A DNA stretch of 21,891 bases, taken from positions 1 through 21,891 of the forward strand of contig JBDRNT010000124.1 of the NCBI GenBank assembly GCA_043810925.1, in the 5' to 3' direction. The position numbers and the translations under genes were made by a program. Under the pieces are notes generated by a model. The model did not search any database. It was not told the DNA's origin and saw nothing but the letters and a program-made list of their open reading frames with translations. The DNA comes from Candidatus Eiseniibacteriota bacterium (lineage in GTDB: Bacteria; Arandabacterota; Arandabacteria; Arandabacterales; Arandabacteraceae). Below, piece by piece: positions 1-21,891 of the stretch (the stretch's first letter is position 1; each line of letters opens with the position of its first letter).

Positions 1-133
1 GTGCAGTGAAACACTGACACCAAAACCTGCGAAGTCCCGGCAATGGCTGGACGCTGATCACTCAGTTATAAGGGGTGAGATCACCCCACCCCGAGGGCGG
101 CGTATGCCCTATTGACAGGTGCCTCTTAATGGG

Positions 134-153
134 TGACCCCATTTTGACCCCCA
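134..153 (-). repeat. Two tandem TGACCCC(C)A motifs (TGGGGTCA on - strand)
   Basis: TGACCCCA at 134-141 and TGACCCCCA at 145-153. The same motif occurs three times in the opposite orientation at 21618-21650. Confidence 0.5.
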
Positions 154-159
154 TTTATC

Positions 160-188
160 TTGACGTGGGGGAGCGGGACTCGTATAAA
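160..188 (+). promoter_or_regulatory. Sigma70-type promoter of the ArsR gene
   Basis: TTGACG (160-165), 17-bp spacer, TATAAA (183-188). TCGTATAA direct repeat at 180-187 and 194-201 overlaps the -10 box (candidate operator). RBS GGAGGG at 209-214. Confidence 0.7.
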
Positions 189-218
189 CGTATTCGTATA
201 AGTGAATCGGAGGGAACG

Positions 219-758
219 ATGATTGAAGCAAGGCTATTCCAGGCACTTTCGGATGCTACGAGGCTTAAGATCCTCTCGCTGCTGGCCCGGGAGCCCCTGA
301 ATGTATCGCGTATGGTACGCGAGCTGGGTTATGCGCAACCTGCTGTATCCAGGCATCTTAGGGTCCTAAGGGAAGTCGACCTGATCCGTGATAAACGGCT
401 CGGCAAAGAGGTCGAGTACTCACTCAATCACAGTCAGGTCAGCGGTGCCGCCGCGTATCTTAAGAGGCTTGCCGAGACGGTGTCGGTTGCGCCTGAGGAG
501 GAGGCGGTGGGTCGAGGAGCGCCAGGCGGGGACATGGGTGGCAGCGATCAGAAGGCGAAGGGCCGGCGGGCACGAAGACCTGGGGCTACAGGGATTCCAT
601 CGGGCGCGGGGGCCCGAAGGAAGAACGGCGTCGGGCACAGGGCGGAGACGGCTAAGCCCGGACCGGAGGACGGCCCCGGGGAGCGCCCGGCACATGATGA
701 GGCGGAATATGCTATCGAGCGCAGGGACGATGATGGGGTGGATGATTTCCTGCTTTGA
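219..758 (+). CDS. ArsR/SmtB-family winged-helix transcriptional regulator with low-complexity C-terminal extension (179 aa)
   Basis: LFQALSDATRLKILSLL...AQPAVSRHLRVLRE.DLI...RLGKEVEYSL is the ArsR HTH signature. Start moved from 75 to ATG 219 because of the RBS and upstream promoter. Confidence 0.9.
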   Translation: MIEARLFQALSDATRLKILSLLAREPLNVSRMVRELGYAQPAVSRHLRVLREVDLIRDKRLGKEVEYSLNHSQVSGAAAYLKRLAETVSVAPEEEAVGRGAPGGDMGGSDQKAKGRRARRPGATGIPSGAGARRKNGVGHRAETAKPGPEDGPGERPAHDEAEYAIERRDDDGVDDFLL

Positions 759-761
759 GCT

Positions 762-789
762 TTGACAAGCGACGCTCGTGTGATTTAAT
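762..789 (+). promoter_or_regulatory. Sigma70-type promoter of the Na/Pi transporter gene
   Basis: TTGACA (762-767), 16-bp spacer, TTTAAT (784-789) preceded by an extended -10 TG (781-782). RBS-like AGAGGGGA at 803-810. Confidence 0.55.
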
Positions 790-814
790 CCACGTGAACG
801 CAAGAGGGGAGCTC

Positions 815-2899
815 TTGAGGAAACATAAAAAGCCACTGGTTCTAATCTCACTCACTGCGTTCTTACTCGTTTACTACTTCCTGTTTTCCTTCTCTTCATC
901 CGAGGCCGGGCCCGAAGCAAGTTCAGTCAAGATGGAGCAGACTCATTGCTTCGATCAACTGAGAGTTGTCCTAAAGGGAACCGGGCAGGAGGGAAGAGCG
1001 GGCACGTGGCTCGGCGATCCATATGAGGTTGAAGTTTTTGACTCTGCGGGGAAACCGGTAAGCGGCGCAACTGTGGAGTTCTGGATCGAAGACGGGTCAG
1101 GTGCCAGCCTCAGCAATGCAACCGCAGCGACGGACACAAACGGTGTTGCCTTAACGGAGGTCAAACTGGGTAGTGAGATGAAGGAATACACGATCAATGC
1201 CTTCATCAAACACCCAACCCTCGGAAGTGGTGTGGTGAGCTTCGTTGCCCGGTCCTACGATGTTAAACGGATCATATTCTGGCTTATCGGTGGCCTTGGT
1301 CTTTTCCTCTACGGTCTTTCGACGATGTCTTCAAGTCTTCAGAAGGCCGCAGGCCGGGGGCTTAAGAACATCCTCAAGTTGCTTACAAGCAACCGGTTTG
1401 TCGCAGCCGGCATGGGAGCGCTGATCACAGCTCTCATTCAAAGCAGCAGTGCAACCACTGTGATGGTCATCGGTTTTGTGAACGCCGGGCTGCTCCAACT
1501 CCAGAAGGCGATAGGCGTCGTTATCGGAGCCAATATAGGTACGACCATAACAGGCCAGCTGATCGCCTTTAAGATCGACAAATTCGCGCTACCGATCATC
1601 GGCATTGGATTCGCTGTCATAGTGTTGTCCAAACGCAGGCAGACGCGACTCTGGGGAGAAGCGATTCTCGGTTTCGGGCTTCTGTTTCTTGGTCTCTATA
1701 TAATGAAGCAGGTGCTCACCCCGCTTGGCGGAAGCAACCTCTTCCGGAGTTTCTTCATAACCTTCAGCGAGCGGCCGATCCTGGGCGTTCTTGCCGGCAT
1801 GCTGGCGACGATGATGATCCAGAGCAGCAGCGCCACAGTCGGTCTTACGATGGCTCTTGCAGCGGCGGGGCTCATAGACTTGAGGGGTGCGATCTGTCTT
1901 GTCCTGGGTGAGAACATCGGTACGACCATAACCGCTCAGATAGCGAGCATTGGTTCAAACCGCGTGGCAAGGCGGGCGGCATGTGCCCACACGATGTTCA
2001 ATGTGCTGGGAGTTGCGGGTATGGTGATCGTGATGTATTCAACTTCCTTCTATGTCCGGCTTGTCGAGTTGACCTCGGGAGACATAATGCGCCAGGTGGC
2101 GAACTCGCACACGCTCTTTAATGTCGCTAACGGCATCGTCTTCCTGCCGCTCACGGGCGTGCTTCGAAGAGTCGTTGAGAAGATCGTACCCGGTGGTGAT
2201 GAAGATATGCCGATCGAGTGCAAATTCCTCGAGCGGCACTTGCTCGAGACTCCGCTTGTTGCCCTGGAGCAGGCCAAGAAGGAAATTGTGAGGATGGCTG
2301 AAGCCGCACGGCTTGCGGTCATGGCTGCGACGAGGTCGTTCTTCGATGATGATGACGCGGCACTGAAGCGAGTCCATATGCTCGAGGAGGGTATCGACAA
2401 TCTCCAGCGTGAGATCACGCATTACCTCGTTGAGCTGGCAAAGCGGAATCTGACCGAGATTGAATCCGAACAGCTGCCCGTCTTGCTTCACACGATCAAC
2501 GACATAGAACGAATAGGCGATCATGCCGAGAACATAGTCGAGATCGCAGAGAGAGGGAAATTCCGGCATGTAGAGCTCGACGGCAAGTCGGTCGAAGAGC
2601 TCAAGGCTATGGCGGGCGAGGTTGATCATATGGCGGAGCATGTGATCAAGGCTTTCGCCTCAGACGATACCGAGGAAGCCCGCAAAGCACTTGCAATCGA
2701 GGACAGGCTTAACCAACTTCATATTGAGATGCGCCAGGGCTATGCGATGCGCCTTGGTAGAGGCAAGGTGCCCGCGTCGGGAGGGCTCATCTATTTTGAC
2801 ATGGTTATGAACTATGAGAAGATGGGTGACCATTACACCAACGTGGCGCAGGCGGTGTTGGGGGAGCTCCAGTGGGATAAGGGTGTGAAGGCGAGGTAG
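815..2899 (+). CDS. Na+/phosphate cotransporter (NptA/YjbB-like) with N-terminal Ig-like domain and C-terminal PhoU-like domains
   Basis: Two QSSSAT and two GxNIGTTIT motifs, GGLGLFLYG, PhoU-like DIERIGDHAENI and YEKMGDHYTNV. TTG 815 preferred over 755 because of the RBS and promoter. Confidence 0.92.
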   Translation: MRKHKKPLVLISLTAFLLVYYFLFSFSSSEAGPEASSVKMEQTHCFDQLRVVLKGTGQEGRAGTWLGDPYEVEVFDSAGKPVSGATVEFWIEDGSGASLSNATAATDTNGVALTEVKLGSEMKEYTINAFIKHPTLGSGVVSFVARSYDVKRIIFWLIGGLGLFLYGLSTMSSSLQKAAGRGLKNILKLLTSNRFVAAGMGALITALIQSSSATTVMVIGFVNAGLLQLQKAIGVVIGANIGTTITGQLIAFKIDKFALPIIGIGFAVIVLSKRRQTRLWGEAILGFGLLFLGLYIMKQVLTPLGGSNLFRSFFITFSERPILGVLAGMLATMMIQSSSATVGLTMALAAAGLIDLRGAICLVLGENIGTTITAQIASIGSNRVARRAACAHTMFNVLGVAGMVIVMYSTSFYVRLVELTSGDIMRQVANSHTLFNVANGIVFLPLTGVLRRVVEKIVPGGDEDMPIECKFLERHLLETPLVALEQAKKEIVRMAEAARLAVMAATRSFFDDDDAALKRVHMLEEGIDNLQREITHYLVELAKRNLTEIESEQLPVLLHTINDIERIGDHAENIVEIAERGKFRHVELDGKSVEELKAMAGEVDHMAEHVIKAFASDDTEEARKALAIEDRLNQLHIEMRQGYAMRLGRGKVPASGGLIYFDMVMNYEKMGDHYTNVAQAVLGELQWDKGVKAR

Positions 2900-2915
2900 G
2901 AGGGGCACCGCACGG

Positions 2916-2943
2916 GAGATCGCCGCGCTTCGCTCGCGATGAC
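2916..2943. repeat. Short REP-like element GAGATCGCCGCGCTTCGCTCGCGATGAC
   Basis: Reverse complement GTCATCGCGAGCGAAGCGCGGCGATCTC reads VIASEARRS and resembles, from memory, the dispersed GTCATTGCGAGCGAAGCGAAGCAATCTC-type intergenic repeat. Single copy in this window. Confidence 0.55.
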
Positions 2944-2997
2944 ATGGACGGGAAGAGGCCGTCGGGCGCAGAGGCCAGACGCTACAGGGACACAAAG

Positions 2998-4371
2998 ATG
3001 GTGGAAAAGTTGAAGGGCACGGTTCTCCTGGTGGACGATGACGCACCGGTCAGGGATTCGCTCCGGAAGGTGCTTGAATACGTAGGGTATACGATAAGCG
3101 AGGCTAGCGACGGCCGCCGGGCGCTTGAAACACTCAAGCATGAAACCCCGGATGTTGTGCTGCTTGACATCAAGATGCCGGGTATGGATGGGATGGAGGT
3201 CTTAAAAAGGATTGTCCAGAACGACTCGGCGCTTCCGGTCATTATGATCTCCGGTCACGCCACGATTCAAACAGCAGTCGAGGCCACCAAGACGGGTGCG
3301 TTCGACTTCCTTGAAAAACCACTCGACCGGGACCGCGTACTCCTCACCGTAAGAAACGCAATCGCCGGCCGGCGGCTCTTTTCTGAAAAGGCCCGGCTCG
3401 AAGAAGACCTTACCAAGGAATTCCGGATCATCGGTGAGAGTCCGGCGATAAAGGAACTGCTTAAGACCATCGAGAAGATCGGACCCACGCAGGCGCGTGT
3501 CCTCATAACAGGCGAGAACGGTGTGGGGAAGGGGATCATCGCCCGCGCGATCCACAAGGCATCAGCCAGAGCAGACGCACGGTTCGTCGAAGTCTGCTGC
3601 GCGGCGATACCGGATGATCTCATTGAGAGCGAACTTCTGGGTTACGAGAAGGGCGCGTTCACCGGGGCCATCGCGAGAAAGCCCGGCCGCTTTGAGATGG
3701 CCGACAGTGGCACCATATTTCTTGATGAAATCGGTGACATGAGCCCGAAGGTGCAGGCCAAGGTGCTCCGGGTGCTCGAGGAGAGCGAGTTCGAACGCGT
3801 CGGGGGCACTGAAACGATTACGGTCGATGTCAGGGTGGTCGCTGCAACAAATAAGGACCTGCGTGCGCTTATAGATGAAGGCAAGTTCCGTGAAGACCTC
3901 TTTTACAGGTTAAACGTTGTACCGATGGAGATCCCGCCCTTGAGACGGCGGAAGGAAGATATACCGGTCCTGGCCGAGTACTTCCTTCAGGTTTACTGCG
4001 AGATGTACGGTCTTAAGCCCAAGAAGCCCGATCGCGCGGTCATGGAAAGACTGGTCGGGTACTCGTGGCCCGGGAACGTACGTGAACTGAGAAACATCAT
4101 CGAACGGATGGTCATAACCTCAGAGGCCGAGCATCTTAAGGTCGTGGACCTCCCGCCCCTGGCGGAGGGAGCGCTCCTGAAGTCATCGGATTACGGCGAT
4201 GTTACGACCTATGAGGAATTCAAGGGCGTCTCGGAGAAGGCGTTCCTCGAGCGGAAACTGGGTGAGAACAACTGGAATATCTCCAAGACGGCCAAGATCC
4301 TCGGTATGCAGCGAAGCAATCTCTATAAGAAGATGCAGAAACTCGGCATCGATACCCCGCACAAAAACTGA
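2998..4371 (+). CDS. Sigma54-dependent response regulator, NtrC/NtrX-like (REC-AAA+-Fis HTH)
   Basis: Receiver LVDDD...LLDIKMPG...FLEKP, Walker [10 protein letters not shown], intact GAFTGA, Walker [43 protein letters not shown] 2998 follows AGGGA. Confidence 0.93.
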
Positions 4372-15757: not shown

Positions 15758-15777
15758 GTGTGCAACATTTTGCACAC
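15758..15777. promoter_or_regulatory. Palindromic operator GTGTGCAA-CATT-TTGCACAC
   Basis: Perfect 8-4-8 palindrome. The same core recurs at 15955-15972. Confidence 0.75.
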
Positions 15778-15906
15778 CGGCCCGTTTCACATCATAGCTG
15801 CCTCACAGTCGTCATGGATGTCACCACGCCGGGGTCAAGTGATCTCGGATCGGGGTGGGTCACTCTCCACGGTCTAAGATATGTCATTGCCAATCGCTAA
15901 TAATAG

Positions 15907-15935
15907 TTGACAATTACGACCAGAAGGTATACACT
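15907..15935 (+). promoter_or_regulatory. Sigma70-type promoter of the kinase-regulator operon
   Basis: TTGACA (15907-15912), 17 bp, TACACT (15930-15935). Confidence 0.7.
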
Positions 15936-15954
15936 TATCTGTCTGCACGATGTA

Positions 15955-15972
15955 TGTGCAAGGCATTGCACA
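15955..15972. promoter_or_regulatory. Palindromic operator TGTGCAA-GGCA-TTGCACA
   Basis: Perfect 7-4-7 palindrome between the promoter and the kinase start codon. Confidence 0.75.
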
Positions 15973-15989
15973 CGGGAGCGTGGCGCACC

Positions 15990-18900
15990 ATGAGTAGCAT
16001 GCTGGATGATCTCTTTCGGTTTCCAGTCCACGAGTCTGCAGACCGCGAATTCGTAAGTCACGTTCTCGCGCGGTTTACGGTACCTGCCATGGTGGTTGAC
16101 GCGCGACTGCATATACGTCTAAGCAACCTCCAGGGTCGGGAAATGCTCCTTAAGCTCCAACCCGGCAAGGAGGGCGCGCGTGGCCAGCGCAGTCTGACTG
16201 CTTTCCCTGCATCGATAAAGGATGATGTGAAATCGTGTCTTAAGAGTGGCAGAGCTGTGGTCCGTAGCGGATTCGAAATCCCTGTGTTGCATCGAAAGCC
16301 TGTTGACGTGCTCATGTGCCCGGCCCGCATCGAGGATACCGATCTGTGCATGATGATCATGCTTCGGCCGAGTCTTAGCCGGGACACAGGCGCGGAGGGC
16401 ACGTTCGACCGGTTGCTGGCAAGTTTCGATGTTGCCGCAGTCTTCATCGACAAGGACATACGCGTACAGCGATTCAACCGACCCTATCTGGCTGCCTTCG
16501 CGCGTAAGCCCGAAGAGGTCACTGGGGTAAGAGTGTCACAGCTCTACATCGGTGAGCAGTCGGAGGTTCTTGAGAACCAGATTCGCCATCTCATGAAGGC
16601 GGGCGAGGCCAGGATAGCGACAGCCGAGATCCTTCCCACCGCCAAGATGGGTGTCGTCTCAACTCCACTGGCAGCCTGGCCGTTCTACGGCATAGACGGG
16701 AAGTGCCGGGGTTTGCTGGCCCTGATGGAGCCTACCCCCATGGCTCTTGCCGGTGTCGGAGCGGACGATGTGAAACAGAGGTTGTTCGGACAGGTCGTGG
16801 AGCTGATGCGCAATGCCGTTGTCGTCACGCATCTTGATGGCCGGATCCTGGTCATGAACAGGGGCGCACAGATGCTGGTCGGGCCCGACACCGAGATCGG
16901 CCGGACTGATTTTAAGTCGGCGGTCCCGTGGAGTCACCCTGAGATAGTCCAGGGTCTTTACGACGACGTCCGGAAAGGCTCGGGCTACTCGTCCGTCTTG
17001 ACAGACATAGACACACCCGGAGGCAAGCGGCTCCTTCATGTCAGAGCCTACGGAATTACGGAGCTGGGGGACATTACCTCGGAGGTCGTATTTCTTCTTG
17101 AAGATGTCACGGAAGAAGAGCAAGTCAGGAACCTCCTCTCCGAAACCGCGAGGAGCCTTGCGGACGAGAAGGCGCTGATGGATAAAGCAGTTGAACACTC
17201 TGATGTCAATTTCATGGTCGTGGCAAGGGACCTGACCATTCTGAAAGTGAACGATCTGACTGCGAAGAAGTTCAGGATGCCGGCGGAAAGCCTGGTCGGC
17301 CAGAAACTGCACGAGTTCCACCCGAATGTCCAGAAGAGCGGGATAGCTGCCAGTCTCAAGGAGGCGATGGACACTAACCGTGAGATTCACCTGCCCGACT
17401 TCCGGCATATCACAAGGCACGGAACCGAGTTGCTTGTTGATTTTTGCGCAATACCGGTGAGATTCAATGGCGAAGAAGCGTGCATGTTGATCGTAAACGA
17501 TGTTCCCGCCGGGAAGCGTGCCGATCTCCGAAGCCCATCCAGGGACCGGCTCTATGAGAAACTGCTCAACAATGTCGAAGAAGGAGTTATTGTTTACGAT
17601 AAGGACCTCCGGGTCTTTGACTGTAATCACGTGGTCGTCGCGATGGCCCGCACCGCGGGGGAGAAGTACGCCCAACTCACCAAGGAGGATCTGGTCGGCA
17701 AGCACATCAGCGATGTGATGAATATCGAACAGGCCGACCTCATGCTTGATTGTCTCCGCCGGACAATTGACTCGGGGAAACCCGTCAGGACAGGCCGCGT
17801 GCGGCTTTCACGGAAGCACAATGATGACGAGTGGTATGCGGACATCAGTTTCATACCCCTGCTCCCCGGTGAAGGACCTCCCGGTGGAGTGATTGGAATG
17901 GCACGGTTCTCCACAAAAGAGAAACGTCTCGAACAGAAGCTCGAAGATTACACTGCCAATCTTGAAGAACTTGTCACAGACCGGACGCACGAGTTGACCT
18001 TGGCGAATACCCTGCTGGAGACCACGGTTGACAGAGTCGAGTCGGTGGCCAAGTCCGGAATGATCTTAAGTACACTTAAGAATATTGAATCCGTGATGAC
18101 CTCGTTTCTTAAGGAAGCCAGAGAGGTGCTCGCTGCAGACTTTATCAGCGTTGCCCTTGTCGAGAGTGTTCCGGGAACATCGAAGACCACCTACTACTCC
18201 TCAGGTTCGGCACCACCATCCGGTACGATCCCCGCCGAGGTCATAGAAAGAGGCCTGTCGAGACTGGTGCTGGCGGCGAGTCCGCCCGGCGAGCCCCGGC
18301 TTCCCAGGCCCAATGTTCTAACCATGGATTTCGCTGTCGGGCGCAACCGCGCACTGCTTCTTGCATGGAAAGCCGAAGGGGAATTCACCTCGATCGATGG
18401 GAACCTGGGCGGGCTTCTGTGTACGCAGCTCAGCTTCTCTATGCCCATAACCACCTATTTGAGTGACTTAAGAAGAGAGCGGGATAGATCCCAGTGTTTG
18501 CGCCAGATCGCCTTCCGGGCAGCGGGGGTGGCATCCGTGTCCGGGGCGATACGGATTGTTGCTGAGGAGATCTCGAGAACCGTGCCGGCAGATCGTTTCT
18601 TCTGGCTGGTCTCCAATAACGATACTGATTTCTGGGTGAGTGAGATCTACTCCGGCGCCGGTACGGAAACCAGAGAAGCCAGACGGGTTGGCCAGGGTAA
18701 GCCTGAGTGTCTGGTCTCGGTGCTTGACGCATGTCATGACTCGCACAAGCTCTTCTGCGACAGGTTCCCGCGGTTCGGGACGAGTGATTTCAGTCCCAAC
18801 ATACCAGCGGAAGGTGTGAAGCCGTGCCCGTTTGTGGGGGATGGTGTCGGTGAGGACCTGGGCGTGTGCCTCAGGGGCCTGCTTCAGAACGCCGGTTTCC

Positions 18901-19763
18901 TGGGTGGGACTGAGGGAACGCTGGCTGTTGTGCCTGTTACCCTGTCATCGCAGTCCTGGGGAATACTCTGCGCATGCAGTGATGTGGGCTCCAGGTTCTC
19001 ACGGGAGGACAGCTGTTTCATGTGTCTGGCGGCGGCCACAGTGGGACATATGCGGCAGGCGGCCGACGCGGCAAGCAACGCGCGTAGACTCGAGACCGCC
19101 GGTCAGACCGTGAGCGAGCTGGCGCACGATCTTAAGTACCCGCTTATGAAGCTCAAGGACTCTATTGCCAATATCACATGCTGCAATAAGAGCACGGTAC
19201 AGAAAGATCCGGGGCTGGGGAGCATAGCGCGGGAGATTGACAACCTGAACCTCCTTGCTCAAGAGCTCATCGATATCTCGAATGTGGAGAGCCATAATTA
19301 CAGGATTGTCGATGTGATCGAGGTGCTGGATCACTGCATCTCGCTCACCTCGACCGATCTGGCGGCAAGATCGGTCAAGATCGAGAGGCGGGGTGATGGT
19401 GCGGTACTTCCCGCGATCTTCGTGAATCCGAAGGACCTGAAGACGGTCTTCCTCAATGTGCTCACAAACTGCATTGATGCAGCCGGTGAGCAGGGTGATG
19501 TCACTATAGATGTAAGACAGGACGGAAGAAGGGCAGGTTCTGAGACTGTGTGCGTCACTTTCAACGATTCCGGCCCGGGTGTTTCTGAGGTCGAAATGGC
19601 GAGGATCTTTGATCCGTTTTACAGCAGAAAGGATGGCGGCAGCGGTCTGGGCCTCTTTTCTGCGAAGAAACGCGCGAACGCCAACGGTGGCGATGTGATC
19701 TGTGAGATGGGGGAAAACGGCAAGTCACGATTCGTGATCTGGTTCCCACTGGCTTCCGGATAG
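15990..19763 (+). CDS. Soluble multi-PAS sensor histidine kinase with GAF-like regions
   Basis: About five PAS-like repeats (e.g. AAVFIDKDIRVQRFN, VVVTHLDGRILVMN, GVIVYDKDLRVFDCN), coiled coil LEELVTDRTHEL, H-box ELAHDLKYPL, N-box VFLNVLTNCIDA, DSGPG, IFDPFYSRK, GSGLGL. No obvious TM helix. Start placed at ATG 15990, downstream of the promoter. Confidence 0.9.
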   Translation: MSSMLDDLFRFPVHESADREFVSHVLARFTVPAMVVDARLHIRLSNLQGREMLLKLQPGKEGARGQRSLTAFPASIKDDVKSCLKSGRAVVRSGFEIPVLHRKPVDVLMCPARIEDTDLCMMIMLRPSLSRDTGAEGTFDRLLASFDVAAVFIDKDIRVQRFNRPYLAAFARKPEEVTGVRVSQLYIGEQSEVLENQIRHLMKAGEARIATAEILPTAKMGVVSTPLAAWPFYGIDGKCRGLLALMEPTPMALAGVGADDVKQRLFGQVVELMRNAVVVTHLDGRILVMNRGAQMLVGPDTEIGRTDFKSAVPWSHPEIVQGLYDDVRKGSGYSSVLTDIDTPGGKRLLHVRAYGITELGDITSEVVFLLEDVTEEEQVRNLLSETARSLADEKALMDKAVEHSDVNFMVVARDLTILKVNDLTAKKFRMPAESLVGQKLHEFHPNVQKSGIAASLKEAMDTNREIHLPDFRHITRHGTELLVDFCAIPVRFNGEEACMLIVNDVPAGKRADLRSPSRDRLYEKLLNNVEEGVIVYDKDLRVFDCNHVVVAMARTAGEKYAQLTKEDLVGKHISDVMNIEQADLMLDCLRRTIDSGKPVRTGRVRLSRKHNDDEWYADISFIPLLPGEGPPGGVIGMARFSTKEKRLEQKLEDYTANLEELVTDRTHELTLANTLLETTVDRVESVAKSGMILSTLKNIESVMTSFLKEAREVLAADFISVALVESVPGTSKTTYYSSGSAPPSGTIPAEVIERGLSRLVLAASPPGEPRLPRPNVLTMDFAVGRNRALLLAWKAEGEFTSIDGNLGGLLCTQLSFSMPITTYLSDLRRERDRSQCLRQIAFRAAGVASVSGAIRIVAEEISRTVPADRFFWLVSNNDTDFWVSEIYSGAGTETREARRVGQGKPECLVSVLDACHDSHKLFCDRFPRFGTSDFSPNIPAEGVKPCPFVGDGVGEDLGVCLRGLLQNAGFLGGTEGTLAVVPVTLSSQSWGILCACSDVGSRFSREDSCFMCLAAATVGHMRQAADAASNARRLETAGQTVSELAHDLKYPLMKLKDSIANITCCNKSTVQKDPGLGSIAREIDNLNLLAQELIDISNVESHNYRIVDVIEVLDHCISLTSTDLAARSVKIERRGDGAVLPAIFVNPKDLKTVFLNVLTNCIDAAGEQGDVTIDVRQDGRRAGSETVCVTFNDSGPGVSEVEMARIFDPFYSRKDGGSGLGLFSAKKRANANGGDVICEMGENGKSRFVIWFPLASG

Positions 19764-19788
19764 ACTTGGAGGAGAGGAACTGCCTGAA

Positions 19789-21174
19789 ATGCCTAGGAAG
19801 GTCCTGATAGTCGACGACAGACTTGAAAGCCTCTGGAAGTGCGCGGATCTCTTCCGCGAGCGCGGCTTTGAAATCGCAACCTGCAGGCAGTCGGACAAAG
19901 CGCTTGGAGTATTCGATGAGTACAGGCCGGATGTTGTACTGCTTGATATCAAGATGCCCGGAAAGAGCGGGTTCGAGATCTTAAAGGAGATAAGGGAGAA
20001 GGACAGAAGGGTCTGTGTCGTGATGCTTTCGGCCTTCGGTGACTCCGCGACCGTGGTCCGGGCCATGAAGCTCGGCGCCGACAACTTCGCCGAGAAGAGT
20101 TCTGATCCTGAGAAGATCCTGATTGTGGTCGAGAAGGAACTCAAGCAGAAAGAAATGGAAATGGAGATCGCGCTTCTCAAGGCCGAACAGGGCAAGGGAC
20201 CCGTGGGTGTGGATCACATAATCGGCCGGAGTGAGGCGATCCGCAGGGTAAAGGAGAGCGTGCTCAAGTATGCCGACAGCGACCTGGCCGTTCTGCTTAC
20301 GGGTGAAAGCGGGGTCGGCAAGGATCTGGTGGCGGGTGCGATCCATAGCGAGTCGAGACGCAGCGGTAAGCCGTTTCAGAATCTGTTGTGTCCGGGAATT
20401 GCCGCGACGCTCTTTGAAGCGGAGCTCTTCGGATCCGAGCGGGGTGCTTTCACCGATTCCTACAGGACCAGGAAGGGTATCATCGAAAGTGCAGGGGCCG
20501 GTACCATTCTTCTTAACGAGATAGTCGACATTCCGACATATGTCCAGGCCAAGCTCCTGCTGATTCTCCAGACAGGCGTATATATGCGCGTAGGCGGGGA
20601 AGGGAAGACCCTTCAGAGCAAGGCACGCTTCATCGCAGCAACCAACGCCGACGTGAGAGACGCTCTCAGGACCAAGAGACTGAGGGAGGATCTCTTCTTC
20701 AGGCTGAACGAGGCCCCGATGGAGATTCCACCTCTCAGGGAGAGGCGCGAAGACATATCGCTTCTTGCCCAGCACTTTATCAGGATGGAATCCCGAAAGC
20801 TGGGCAGGTCGGAGATAGAGCTCTCGGATAAGTCGATGGGGTTCCTTGCGGAGTACGACTGGCCCGGCAACGTGAGGGAGCTTGAAACCCTGATGAGGGC
20901 GGTTGTGGCCGGTGGAAGTGAAGACGTGATCATGGGCAGGGCGTTTATGACCAGGGACAGGGATTCCGATGAGGAAAACGGTTTGGGCTCCCGGCTTAAG
21001 GATGCTATCAGGAAAGAGACGGAATCCATCGAGAAACACAGGATCGCTCAGGCGCTTCACAGGTTCGGCGGGAGCCGGAAACGGGCTGCCGAGTACCTGG
21101 GCATCAGCTACCGGAGCCTCCTGTTTAAGATGAAGCACTACAGTCTGAGAGATGAGCTACCAAGTGTGCAATAG
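19789..21174 (+). CDS. Sigma54-dependent response regulator (REC-AAA+-Fis HTH) with variant motifs
   Basis: LIVDD...LLDIKMPG, Walker A LTGESGVGKD, GAFTDS, Walker [50 protein letters not shown] upstream. Confidence 0.92.
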   Translation: MPRKVLIVDDRLESLWKCADLFRERGFEIATCRQSDKALGVFDEYRPDVVLLDIKMPGKSGFEILKEIREKDRRVCVVMLSAFGDSATVVRAMKLGADNFAEKSSDPEKILIVVEKELKQKEMEMEIALLKAEQGKGPVGVDHIIGRSEAIRRVKESVLKYADSDLAVLLTGESGVGKDLVAGAIHSESRRSGKPFQNLLCPGIAATLFEAELFGSERGAFTDSYRTRKGIIESAGAGTILLNEIVDIPTYVQAKLLLILQTGVYMRVGGEGKTLQSKARFIAATNADVRDALRTKRLREDLFFRLNEAPMEIPPLRERREDISLLAQHFIRMESRKLGRSEIELSDKSMGFLAEYDWPGNVRELETLMRAVVAGGSEDVIMGRAFMTRDRDSDEENGLGSRLKDAIRKETESIEKHRIAQALHRFGGSRKRAAEYLGISYRSLLFKMKHYSLRDELPSVQ

Positions 21175-21202
21175 CATTCACAGAGGTGAAAAGGCTTGCA
21201 GA
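21165..21202. promoter_or_regulatory. Tandem degenerate TGTGCAA-N4-TTGCACA sites (candidate enhancer)
   Basis: TGTGCAA-TAGC-ATTCACA (21165-21182) and GGTGAAA-AGGC-TTGCAGA (21185-21202), 20 bp apart. Confidence 0.6.
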
Positions 21203-21302
21203 CATTCGGGTGCTTTGGGCGCTCTTTGGAGGAACTCCTGATGACCTGTCTCTGCGGTTTTCAGGCTACCGGTGGAGATTTCAGCCGGTTGACGTTGCCG
21301 CA

Positions 21303-21315
21303 TAACACATTGGTA
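21303..21315 (-). promoter_or_regulatory. IHF-like binding site
   Basis: Minus strand reads TACCAA-TGTG-TTA, one mismatch to WATCAA-N4-TTR, next to an A-tract and between the candidate enhancer and promoter. Confidence 0.5.
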
Positions 21316-21399
21316 TATAAAAAAATAGATACAGATAGATTGTTTGTTGGTGTGGGACGCCTGGCTGATTCACGGCACGTGAGACTGCAAGACCTCGTC

Positions 21400-21415
21400 A
21401 GGCACAGAAGATGCA
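21400..21415 (+). promoter_or_regulatory. Sigma54 (-24/-12) promoter candidate
   Basis: AGGCAC-AGAAG-ATGCA with GG-N10-GC spacing. GGCACAG-N3-ATGCAAG is shared with the promoter at 12477. A weaker GG-N10-GC lies at 21362-21377. Confidence 0.6.
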
Positions 21416-21417
21416 AG

Positions 21418-21614
21418 CCCTTGAGATCGACGATTCCTCACAGGACCAAGTGTGCGGTCTCAGGGGTGCCGTCACGCTCCATGTCCAGCGGGGCACGCCA
21501 GTGCCCCGGTTGGGCATGATTGACTCGTGGGACGCAATAGGTCATACGTCTGACCTAGGGAAGCTGCTGCGCTTCTATCCGGCGGGGGGCAGGCCACTGC
21601 CCCCTTTTCCCTTT
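21418..21614 (+). ncRNA. Candidate sigma54-dependent small RNA (5' end uncertain)
   Basis: Five consecutive hairpins, no RBS-supported ORF, bounded by a -24/-12 promoter and an intrinsic terminator. Confidence 0.5.
21585..21614 (+). terminator. Intrinsic terminator
   Basis: GGGGGCAG-GCCA-CTGCCCCC followed by TTTTCCCTTT. Confidence 0.75.
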
Positions 21615-21617
21615 GTA

Positions 21618-21767
21618 TGGGGTCAAAGCTGGGGTCACCTGATGGGGTCAGGCTTTGAATTCTGGAATTAGGGTTCACACCGGGACTGGCGTGGAGTAGC
21701 CAGGTTCTGGCTCCGCCGCAGAATGGGGGAACCGCACGAGAGCCCAATTCCAGAATTCAAAGCCTGA
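21618..21767. repeat. REP/REPIN-like element: three TGGGGTCA copies plus a perfect 22-bp inverted repeat
   Basis: TGGGGTCA at 21618, 21630 and 21643. TCAGGCTTTGAATTCTGGAATT (21648-21669) is the exact reverse complement of 21746-21767. Confidence 0.8.
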
Positions 21768-21891
21768 TAATCATAAAGAGGCACCTCCAGAGCATTCCAA
21801 GAGAGATTTCTCTCTGGTATGCTCTGGTTTACCACCAACCAAAGGAGGTGCCCTATGGAATTATACGGTGGATTGGATGTTCATTCAAGCA
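21768..21891 (+). mobile_element. Left end of an IS110/IS1111-family element (truncated by window end)
   Basis: Structured ~87-nt leader followed by a transposase start. The boundary is inferred from where the inverted repeat breaks off. Confidence 0.65.
21855..21891 (+). CDS. IS110-family DEDD recombinase/transposase, first 12 codons (partial)
   Basis: RBS AAAGGAGG then MELYGGLDVHSS, matching the IS110 N-terminal Y-x-G-[IL]-D-[VL]-H motif that carries the first catalytic Asp. Only 12 residues are visible. Confidence 0.75.
   Translation, partial: MELYGGLDVHSS

Follow-up and report, generated by a model that had tools for sequence, protein, structure and literature searches.

A conserved small RNA family behind a multi-PAS kinase/bEBP operon of Candidatus Eiseniibacteriota: predicted sigma54 control and a candidate target

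Introduction

The question raised by this locus is what a multi-PAS histidine kinase and the bacterial enhancer-binding protein (bEBP) encoded next to it control, when the bEBP gene is followed by about 190 nt without a supported open reading frame (ORF). We analyzed a stretch of 21,891 nt (the window), which is the entire contig C124 of a metagenome-assembled Candidatus Eiseniibacteriota genome (3.85 Mb, 185 contigs, 91.74% complete). An earlier note had proposed a sigma54-dependent small RNA beside its activator as the output of the system. For comparison, 16 genomes of the order (the window's own included) and 2 others of the same class were used, together with 8 further metagenome contigs carrying the RNA, which were retrieved by a 25-nt pattern. 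By sequence comparison, the element behind the bEBP gene represents a genuine and conserved small RNA family that had not been described so far; its design is a known one, and its sigma54/bEBP control is predicted from a complete and conserved promoter architecture. We consider it likely that positions 21427-21614 form a trans-acting, base-pairing small RNA, which is probably the main and perhaps the only sigma54 output of the adjoining PAS-kinase/bEBP system. This reading draws on conservation, synteny, covariation and complementarity, from which we infer that the RNA is transcribed, that the bEBP is needed for this and which sign the regulation has. The proposal of the earlier note was thus supported as far as the small RNA is concerned; the likely target, the translation start region of the kinase itself, had been missed.

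A conserved RNA element follows the bEBP gene throughout the order

Using positions 21175-21650 as query in a DNA search of 41 genomes, matches were found in 9 of the other 12 genomes in the family (10 of 41 including the window's own) and in no genome outside the family. A genome of the same genus aligned over nearly the whole query. In the others, the main matches covered only 21401-21521 with 79-86% identity, and genomes G007 and G011 gave additional short and weak matches over the second linker motif and the terminator. In the alignment of the 10 sequences the flanks were unalignable, while a promoter, about 12 variable bases and a conserved block of approximately 90 nt were recognized in succession. 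The first conserved base of the RNA was found 14-17 nt past the GC of the -12 box, so that conservation begins at the expected transcription start. With bEBP proteins that are 46-57% identical outside the genus, the RNA core at its 79-86% DNA identity is far better conserved than its neighbour.

The covariance model R1, built from the 10 aligned sequences, detected exactly one copy per genome in 11 of the order's 16 genomes, and also the element in the 8 metagenome contigs. Diverged copies missed by the model were located at the same position behind the bEBP gene in G005, G010, G013 and G014, which makes the RNA family order-wide. G013 and G014, from the sister family, show an unchanged linker and a 5' extension of about 35 nt; the copies of G005 and G010 (genus g5) are more diverged. 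The linker was kept in f2 (G013, G014 and G015) and in G010, with a shorter, diverged form UGCCGUCACGCUC in G005. Overall, the element was seen in 15 of the 16 genomes of the order and was not found in G012, which is 57% complete. No credible match was obtained in the 2 genomes of the neighbouring order. Two further hits were attributed to chance, one in G016 (14.5 bits), which lies in coding-like sequence with no adjoining bEBP gene, and a pattern match in Labrys miyagiensis, which reached only 13.8 bits with the model.

The gene neighbourhood was found equally stable on the upstream side. A distance of 244-368 nt separates the end of the bEBP gene from the RNA in 15 of 19 loci; the remaining 4 have at most 303 nt of upstream DNA. 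Orthologues of the kinase lie upstream of the bEBP gene wherever the DNA extends that far. Promoter and hairpins are conserved behind the bEBP orthologues, as the orthologue check proposed in the earlier note had asked.

The fold of the RNA is supported by covariation

The RNA core of about 95 nt consists of two hairpin domains. An RNAalifold consensus gave a 5' domain, a single-stranded linker and a hairpin of 16 pairs (hairpin 2; Table 1). The window sequence from 21425 to 21614 folds at -90.7 kcal/mol compared to -75.2 +/- 4.9 for shuffled sequences (z = -3.18), with 1 of 200 shuffles as good. For 18 distinct sequences, 96.7% of the cells were paired versus 91.9% in shuffles, and 10 of 29 pairs changed on both sides versus 4.3 in shuffles. 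None of 500 shuffles matched the covariation score, the share of paired cells or either count of both-side changes, and 2 of 500 matched the count of further pair types. In slid controls, with the 3' partners shifted, 38-55% of the cells paired. Hairpin 2, with 8 pairs changed on both sides, accounted for most of the covariation. G-U is found at several of the conserved pairs, which places the RNA on the plus strand. Judged from these comparisons, covariation supports the fold and lies above the level of shuffles.

Long and short forms of the RNA were distinguished. Beyond the core, the long forms of 190-250 nt, the window's included, extend over hairpins that vary, a repeat of the linker motif, GUCACGCUUCUAUCC, and a strong terminator. 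In the window the second copy reads CGCUUCUAUCC. Terminators equivalent to that of the window were found in G001, G007, G011 and L025, and the terminator is kept only in long-form RNAs. Weak second matches of model R1 were observed downstream of the core in L039, L035, L025 and L042.

A sigma54-type promoter with tandem upstream sites is conserved

The earlier note had read two palindromes, an IHF-like site, a GG-N10-GC promoter and a terminator around the RNA; sequence reading and a terminator scan recovered all of them at the same positions. The 10 aligned sequences all have the promoter, in the form GGCAY-N5/6-TGC, and it is conserved in G005, G010, G013 and G014 as well. Tandem sites of the form TGTGCA-N6/7-TGCACA, about 21 bp apart, were present in all 15 loci holding the bEBP end, directly 3' of the stop codon in 11 of them and further away, by up to about 110 nt, in L025, L027, L030 and L035. 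In the window, the palindrome at 21165-21182 reads TGTGCA-N6-TTCACA and has the bEBP stop codon inside. A TAA-N4-TTG(A/G) block about 100 bp upstream of the promoter was kept in the long-form clade, and G011 and L027 match the IHF consensus YAANNNNTTGATW perfectly. Candidate upstream activator sites, within the 80-300 bp from the promoter that are usual for such sites, and an IHF-like site between were found, both conserved. The genome encodes rpoN and 4 genes of the HU/IHF family. Given the conservation in relatives, promoter, palindromes, IHF-like site and RNA core are beyond chance as sequence features. Together with the covarying hairpins and the constant company of the bEBP gene, this layout supports the earlier proposal of a small RNA under predicted sigma54 control beside its activator.

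A genome-wide scan with the palindrome motif for nearby sigma54-like promoters yielded 463 motif matches. Of the palindrome sites that were checked, the one at 21165 alone had a sigma54-like promoter (21400) within 600 nt on the matching strand; a site on contig C167 had one weaker match on the minus strand. This would fit a bEBP that has the RNA as its only sigma54 target and that may regulate its own operon as well.

The sister-family loci L062 (G013), L064 (G014) and L024 (G015) have the sigma54 promoter about 45 nt further upstream, which adds a 5' hairpin to the RNA, and their hairpin 2 is interrupted by about 16 inserted nt.

The RNA travels with the bEBP gene and not with the downstream gene

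The conserved element might instead act in cis, as an attenuator- or riboswitch-like 5' leader of the downstream gene, which usually encodes an ABC ATPase. The sigma54 promoter would then be a second, signal-dependent promoter of that operon, and no free trans-acting RNA would be made. Some of the gene order is in line with this view. An ABC ATPase gene was found within 1.1 kb downstream in 12 of 15 loci checked, and the short forms of about 95 nt end at hairpin 2 with only a modest U tract, the next promoter beginning within about 10 nt. However, this promoter is a separate and conserved one (TTGACA-N17-TAnAnT), located between the RNA and the ABC gene, and the long forms have strong 3' terminators, in which a G+C stem precedes 4-7 U. 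The start region of the ABC transporter gene showed no consistent complementarity to the RNA (in 3 of 12 loci the value was reached by at most 8 of 300 shuffles). Moreover, the RNA stays with the bEBP gene where the downstream gene differs. In G008/L028 the next gene is a different one, an AlaX-like ORF from the reading of its translation. Behind the RNA of the window lie palindromes resembling repetitive extragenic palindromes (REP) and a multi-copy repeat that ends the contig. The RNA therefore travels with the bEBP gene and not with the gene downstream. A role as cis-acting leader is considered unlikely on these grounds, and the small RNA acting in trans is retained as the preferred reading.

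As a separate observation, a conserved sigma70-like promoter followed by a conserved GGAACUUUU was found at the start of the ABC ATPase leader in L033, L031, L036, L034, L042 and other loci.

The linker of the RNA is complementary to the kinase start region

Comparing the near-invariant linker GGUGCCGUCACGCUCC with the start of the kinase mRNA, GGAGCGUGGCGCACC-AUG (15975-15992), 11 pairs, a one-base bulge and 4 further pairs were found. For a genome-wide ranking, 3,536 candidate start regions were used, defined as those of ORFs of at least 100 aa with a motif resembling a Shine-Dalgarno (SD) sequence. The kinase start region ranked first with a 24-nt seed (-31.6, next -30.1) and with an 18-nt seed (-30.5, next -26.3). 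Allowing for about six inspected combinations of segment and gene, the chance of a first rank is roughly 0.002. The next-best start regions were mostly internal false starts, for example in PGK-, FolP- and kinase-like ORFs as judged by reading of the translations, and the start region of the bEBP gene ranked between 1107 and 2192. Other segments of the RNA did not single out the kinase start region; with the 5' seed the kinase ranked 1819 and no start region stood out.

When each RNA was paired with the kinase start region of its own lineage, 10 of 13 lineages gave -25.4 to -35.0 kcal/mol, values that no more than 3 of 1,000 shuffles attained. GGAGCGU was kept in the kinase start region of 10 of 13 lineages. 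The distal mRNA site varies among lineages with complementarity retained. G002 and G004 have GUUAC (with U) in the RNA and GCGUA (with A) in the mRNA, a compensatory change relative to window-type lineages, which have C and G there. Combined with the same RNA sequence GUUAC, G006 has GCGUG (wobble) and G008 has GCGUU (mismatch, shifted register) in the mRNA.

Wider scans were less informative. In a genome-wide duplex scan not limited to start regions, G+C-rich coding sequence dominated and the kinase site was outside the top 40, and duplexfold of the whole RNA on leaders was uninformative. Taking the seed from the 5' end of the RNA gave two additional 13-mers with exact complementarity to GACGAUUCCUCAC (C52, C157). 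They were dropped as probable chance matches, because they lie between convergent genes or before frames of 10-27 aa and because such 11-mers are common in the genome.

An invariant linker might also be explained by a protein partner. The RNA would then mainly be a decoy for an RNA-binding protein that recognizes the repeated (G)UCACGCUYC-N3-UCC before a G+C hairpin, with the match to the kinase being secondary or coincidental. In favour of a decoy, the motif is present twice in long forms, the linker is invariant even without a complementary kinase start region, and CsrA is encoded in the genome. On the other side, short forms have a single copy of the motif and no candidate protein is known. 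As stated in the earlier note, GGA motifs are few: 3 were counted by eye in 21425-21614, none of them in a conserved loop, which makes the RNA unlike a CsrA sponge of the CsrB/RsmZ type. Finally, the kinase start region takes the first rank in the genome and shows covariation with the RNA. A decoy function is improbable on balance, and base pairing by the linker remains the favoured mode of action.

Coding potential and known RNA families

For the conserved block as a DNA-level regulatory sequence or a mere remnant, from which no functional RNA is made, it can be said that transcription was not observed. Against it stand the strand-specific G-U pairs and the compensatory changes in hairpin 2, the start of conservation just past a conserved sigma54 promoter and the terminators at the 3' end, so that we hold this explanation for very improbable. 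It is scarcely credible that the stretch encodes a small protein, since the two frames open in the window (86 aa, 21411-21671; 107 aa, 21196-21519) had no Pfam match, the 86-aa frame ends at +59 in the genome of the same genus, the 18 sequences have no frame across the RNA core with a start codon in common, indels of 1-2 nt sit in hairpin loops and substitutions keep base pairs. The absence of a supported ORF over some 190 nt, as claimed before, was thereby corroborated.

The RNA had further been called unannotated, and the Rfam check agreed with this: there were 0 matches at gathering score in the whole window, and a permissive scan of 21100-21891 (E up to 10) gave chance-level matches only. 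The best sub-threshold match (hya, RF02992, 21500-21569, 25.7 bits, E 0.045, threshold 56.8) was treated as chance. In a full-text literature search on the phylum name Eisenbacteria, no regulatory RNA was found among the matches listed, which were ecological and genomic surveys.

Kinase, bEBP and candidate autoregulatory sites

The kinase ORF at 15855-19763 (1,302 aa) contains several PAS domains, a weak GAF match and HATPase_c (Pfam). The start at 15855 was revised: orthologue alignments (tblastn) begin at the residue encoded by the ATG at 15990, which is therefore taken as the start. The bEBP has 461 aa with receiver, Sigma54_activat, AAA lid and HTH_8 domains (Pfam), and its gene ends with TAG at 21172-21174.

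In the 3.85 Mb genome, no more than two exact copies of the palindrome TGTGCA-N6-TGCACA exist, one at 15759 and the other at 15955. A counterpart of the first was found about 200 nt before the kinase start in G001, G007, L025 and G002, and a palindrome or near-palindrome just before the kinase SD was found in all 13 lineages with a usable start region. Relatives have an equivalent kinase promoter, TTGACA/TTGATT-N17-TAnAnT. The two exact palindromes flanking the kinase promoter suggest autoregulation by the bEBP, as far as sequence motifs can indicate it. By starting its stretch at 15758 the earlier note had included the palindrome at 15759, which is indeed present; its place in a putative autoregulatory pair at the kinase promoter had not been recognized.

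Table 1. Positions of the predicted features in the window.
Feature	Position	Strand	Basis
Predicted small RNA, long form, about 188 nt, inferred 5' end	21427..21614	+	Conservation start, fold, model R1 101.3 bits
5' domain: helix GACG/CGUC enclosing CCUC...GGGG hairpin, near-invariant UCCUCA	21429..21473	+	Consensus fold, pair counts
Near-invariant linker/seed GGGGUGCCGUCACGCUCCAU, ACGCUCC unpaired in consensus fold	21463..21482	+	Invariant columns
Hairpin 2, long G+C-rich stem	21481..21517	+	8 of 16 pairs change on both sides, 18 sequences
Second, degenerate copy of linker motif, CGCUUCUAUCC, before terminator	21562..21581	+	GUCACGCUUCU(A/G)UCC kept in other long forms
Intrinsic terminator	21584..21614	+	9-pair stem 21584-21605, then T run (terminator scan)
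Sigma54-type promoter, -24 GGCAC, -12 TGCA	21400..21415	+	aGGCAC-N5-aTGCA, GG-N10-GC spacing
Tandem enhancer-like palindromes	21165..21182 and 21186..21203	.	Centres 21 bp apart, overlap bEBP stop
IHF-like site, YAANNNNTTGATW with one mismatch	21303..21315	-	Sequence reading against the consensus
Kinase translation start region, SD GGAG through -1	15975..15989	+	Complementary to small RNA linker
Perfect palindrome TGTGCA-N6-TGCACA, bEBP-type, upstream of kinase promoter	15759..15776	.	1 of 2 genome copies
Sigma70-like promoter of kinase-bEBP operon: TTGACA (15907), 17-nt spacer, TACACT	15907..15935	+	Consensus match only
Second perfect palindrome, about +14 to +31 of predicted kinase transcript, candidate operator	15955..15972	.	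Other genome copy
Multi-PAS histidine kinase (weak GAF match), 1,257 aa	15990..19763	+	Pfam; start from tblastn alignments
Response-regulator bEBP: receiver, AAA+ sigma54 activator, Fis-type helix-turn-helix (HTH)	19789..21174	+	Pfam, translation, orthologue motifs

A predicted circuit and the points that weigh against it

Combining these features, the following circuit is proposed. The phosphorylated bEBP would bind the two tandem TGTGCA-N6-TGCACA-like sites over its own stop codon, a protein of the IHF/HU type may bend the intervening DNA of about 200 bp, and the bEBP would open the sigma54 promoter at 21400-21415. The RNA is predicted to fold into a 5' stem-loop domain, the near-invariant linker GCCGUCACGCUCC and a long G+C-rich hairpin, to which a second linker-like motif and a terminator would be added in the window's genus. 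Pairing of the linker across SD and spacer of the kinase mRNA (15975-15989) would lower the amount of kinase and thus act as negative feedback. A second feedback may arise from the bEBP sites flanking the sigma70-like promoter of the kinase-bEBP operon. A wider reading holds that this order of Candidatus Eisenbacteria built a LuxO-Qrr-like circuit independently of Proteobacteria and apparently without Hfq, in which the single sigma54 output would be a new RNA family, with double negative feedback and an invariant seed controlling a further order-wide regulon. For this more far-reaching proposal we see arguments and doubts in balance.

Several observations weigh against the proposed circuit. 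First, a transcript was not seen, and the only sequencing runs listed with the stretch, none of them on record as RNA, are labelled metatranscriptomic and were rated as probably DNA. These 3 runs of one study contain a relative about 90-95% alike, with contigs X1 (190 nt, 21423-21610) and X2 (251 nt, 21374-21608), and no contig of this relative on the bEBP gene was found in them. The ends of X1 and X2 are suggestive, but were discounted as evidence, as contigs cannot show RNA ends. Secondly, Hfq was not found in the 91.74% complete genome. The bEBP of the window reads GAFTDS where GAFTGA is expected in the sigma54-contact loop (residues about 219-224); its orthologues have GAFTGA, GAYTGA, GAFTDA or GAYTDA.

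Concerning the RNA itself, the alignment used for covariation had been fitted to the structure of the model, which favours structure somewhat. Helix 2 is almost invariant, hence it carries little information on structure and is constrained as sequence. In short forms the weak U tract after hairpin 2 makes read-through into the next gene possible. Concerning the target, the set of start regions came from a crude home-made finder of ORFs plus SD, the complementarity to the kinase had been noticed by eye before the ranking, and with the 13-nt core alone the kinase drops to rank 4. Furthermore, G005, G013 and G014 showed no pairing with the kinase (-6.7 to -14.6 kcal/mol, reached by 293-730 of 1,000 shuffles), and the kinase start region of G010 is without GGAGCGU. 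As G010, G013 and G014 keep the linker without a match to the kinase, the kinase cannot be the target that keeps the linker invariant. Feedback on the kinase would accordingly be a feature of most of one family, and another shared target or partner must hold the linker invariant. The conservation of the linker in lineages without a complementary kinase start region makes further mRNA targets probable.

Comparison with known systems

A small RNA transcribed from a sigma54 promoter under the control of a two-component bEBP encoded nearby is known from Pseudomonas CbrB-CrcZ and enterobacterial GlrR-GlmY. CrcZ sequesters Hfq/Crc by A-rich repeats, and GlmY acts by protein mimicry. Neither kind of motif was recognized in the present RNA, for which base pairing to a start region is predicted. 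In Vibrio, qrr1 adjoins luxO.

LuxO represses transcription of its own gene; translation of luxO, and also luxMN, which includes the gene for the receptor kinase LuxN, are in turn repressed by the Qrr RNAs (PMC3130561, PMC3262071). The locus resembles this Vibrio circuit in a response-regulator bEBP predicted to activate a sigma54-dependent small RNA, in bEBP sites at the promoter of its own operon, in the adjoining position of the sigma54 RNA and in an RNA predicted to pair with a kinase start. It differs in several respects. The system belongs to a different phylum, a cytoplasmic-looking multi-PAS kinase replaces the Vibrio phosphorelay, there is one RNA copy per genome and Hfq was not found. 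Feedback is predicted on the kinase cistron and not on the bEBP cistron, in agreement with the low rank of the bEBP start region (1107-2192). No Rfam match by sequence or structure ties the RNA to Qrr in 21100-21891 at E up to 10.

The layout is also similar to that of Myxococcus, where pxr is described downstream of the sigma54-dependent response regulator gene nla19, with an intergenic region of 262 nt and a predicted sigma54 promoter, and where Pxr is a 108-nt RNA with three stem-loops (PMC5568312). Here the gap is 252 nt, and the RNA has 95-190 nt and several stem-loops. No homology to Pxr was detectable by Rfam thresholds in a library for which the presence of a Pxr model was not confirmed. 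The targets of Pxr are stated to remain unknown (PMC11928866); for the RNA described here, in contrast, a candidate target is predicted. In rhizobia, the small RNA NfeR1 and the bEBP two-component system NtrBC are described to regulate each other by double-negative feedback (PMC10746234); compared to that account, regulatory sign and gene layout appear to be different here. As layout and logic match those of LuxO-Qrr and Nla19-Pxr, the module, a candidate undescribed one in the earlier note, is not considered a new kind of system.

The locus offers a compact testable circuit, in which an operator sequence and a sigma54 promoter are combined with a small RNA of defined seed and with a predicted target that has natural compensatory variants. 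Cultivation of the organism would not be needed, as the circuit could be reconstructed in E. coli. If the predictions are true, the combination of a bEBP, an adjoining sigma54 small RNA and feedback on the sensor would be a recurrent design in distant phyla, and the covariance model could be used for annotation of the RNA family in metagenomes.

Other features of the window

In the region 75-4371, at the other end of the window, genes for an ArsR-type regulator and for a Na/Pi cotransporter with fused PhoU domains were found along with that of another response-regulator bEBP (2944-4371); they may form a separate phosphate-linked sigma54 unit. Behind the RNA, positions 21746-21891 belong to a multi-copy repeat with copies of at least 99% identity at the ends of contigs C95, C87, C151 and C64. 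An ORF beginning MELYGGLDVHS... opens at 21856 within this repeat and runs off the contig end; we take it to resemble the N-terminus of an IS110-type transposase, and a degraded copy in C101 had no Pfam match. REP-like palindromic units form an inverted pair at 21627-21672 and 21740-21767 and are scattered over at least 10 contigs of the genome, the multi-copy repeat lying between both arms of the pair. REP-like units similar to those of the window were also found 3' of the RNA terminator in G001 and G009.

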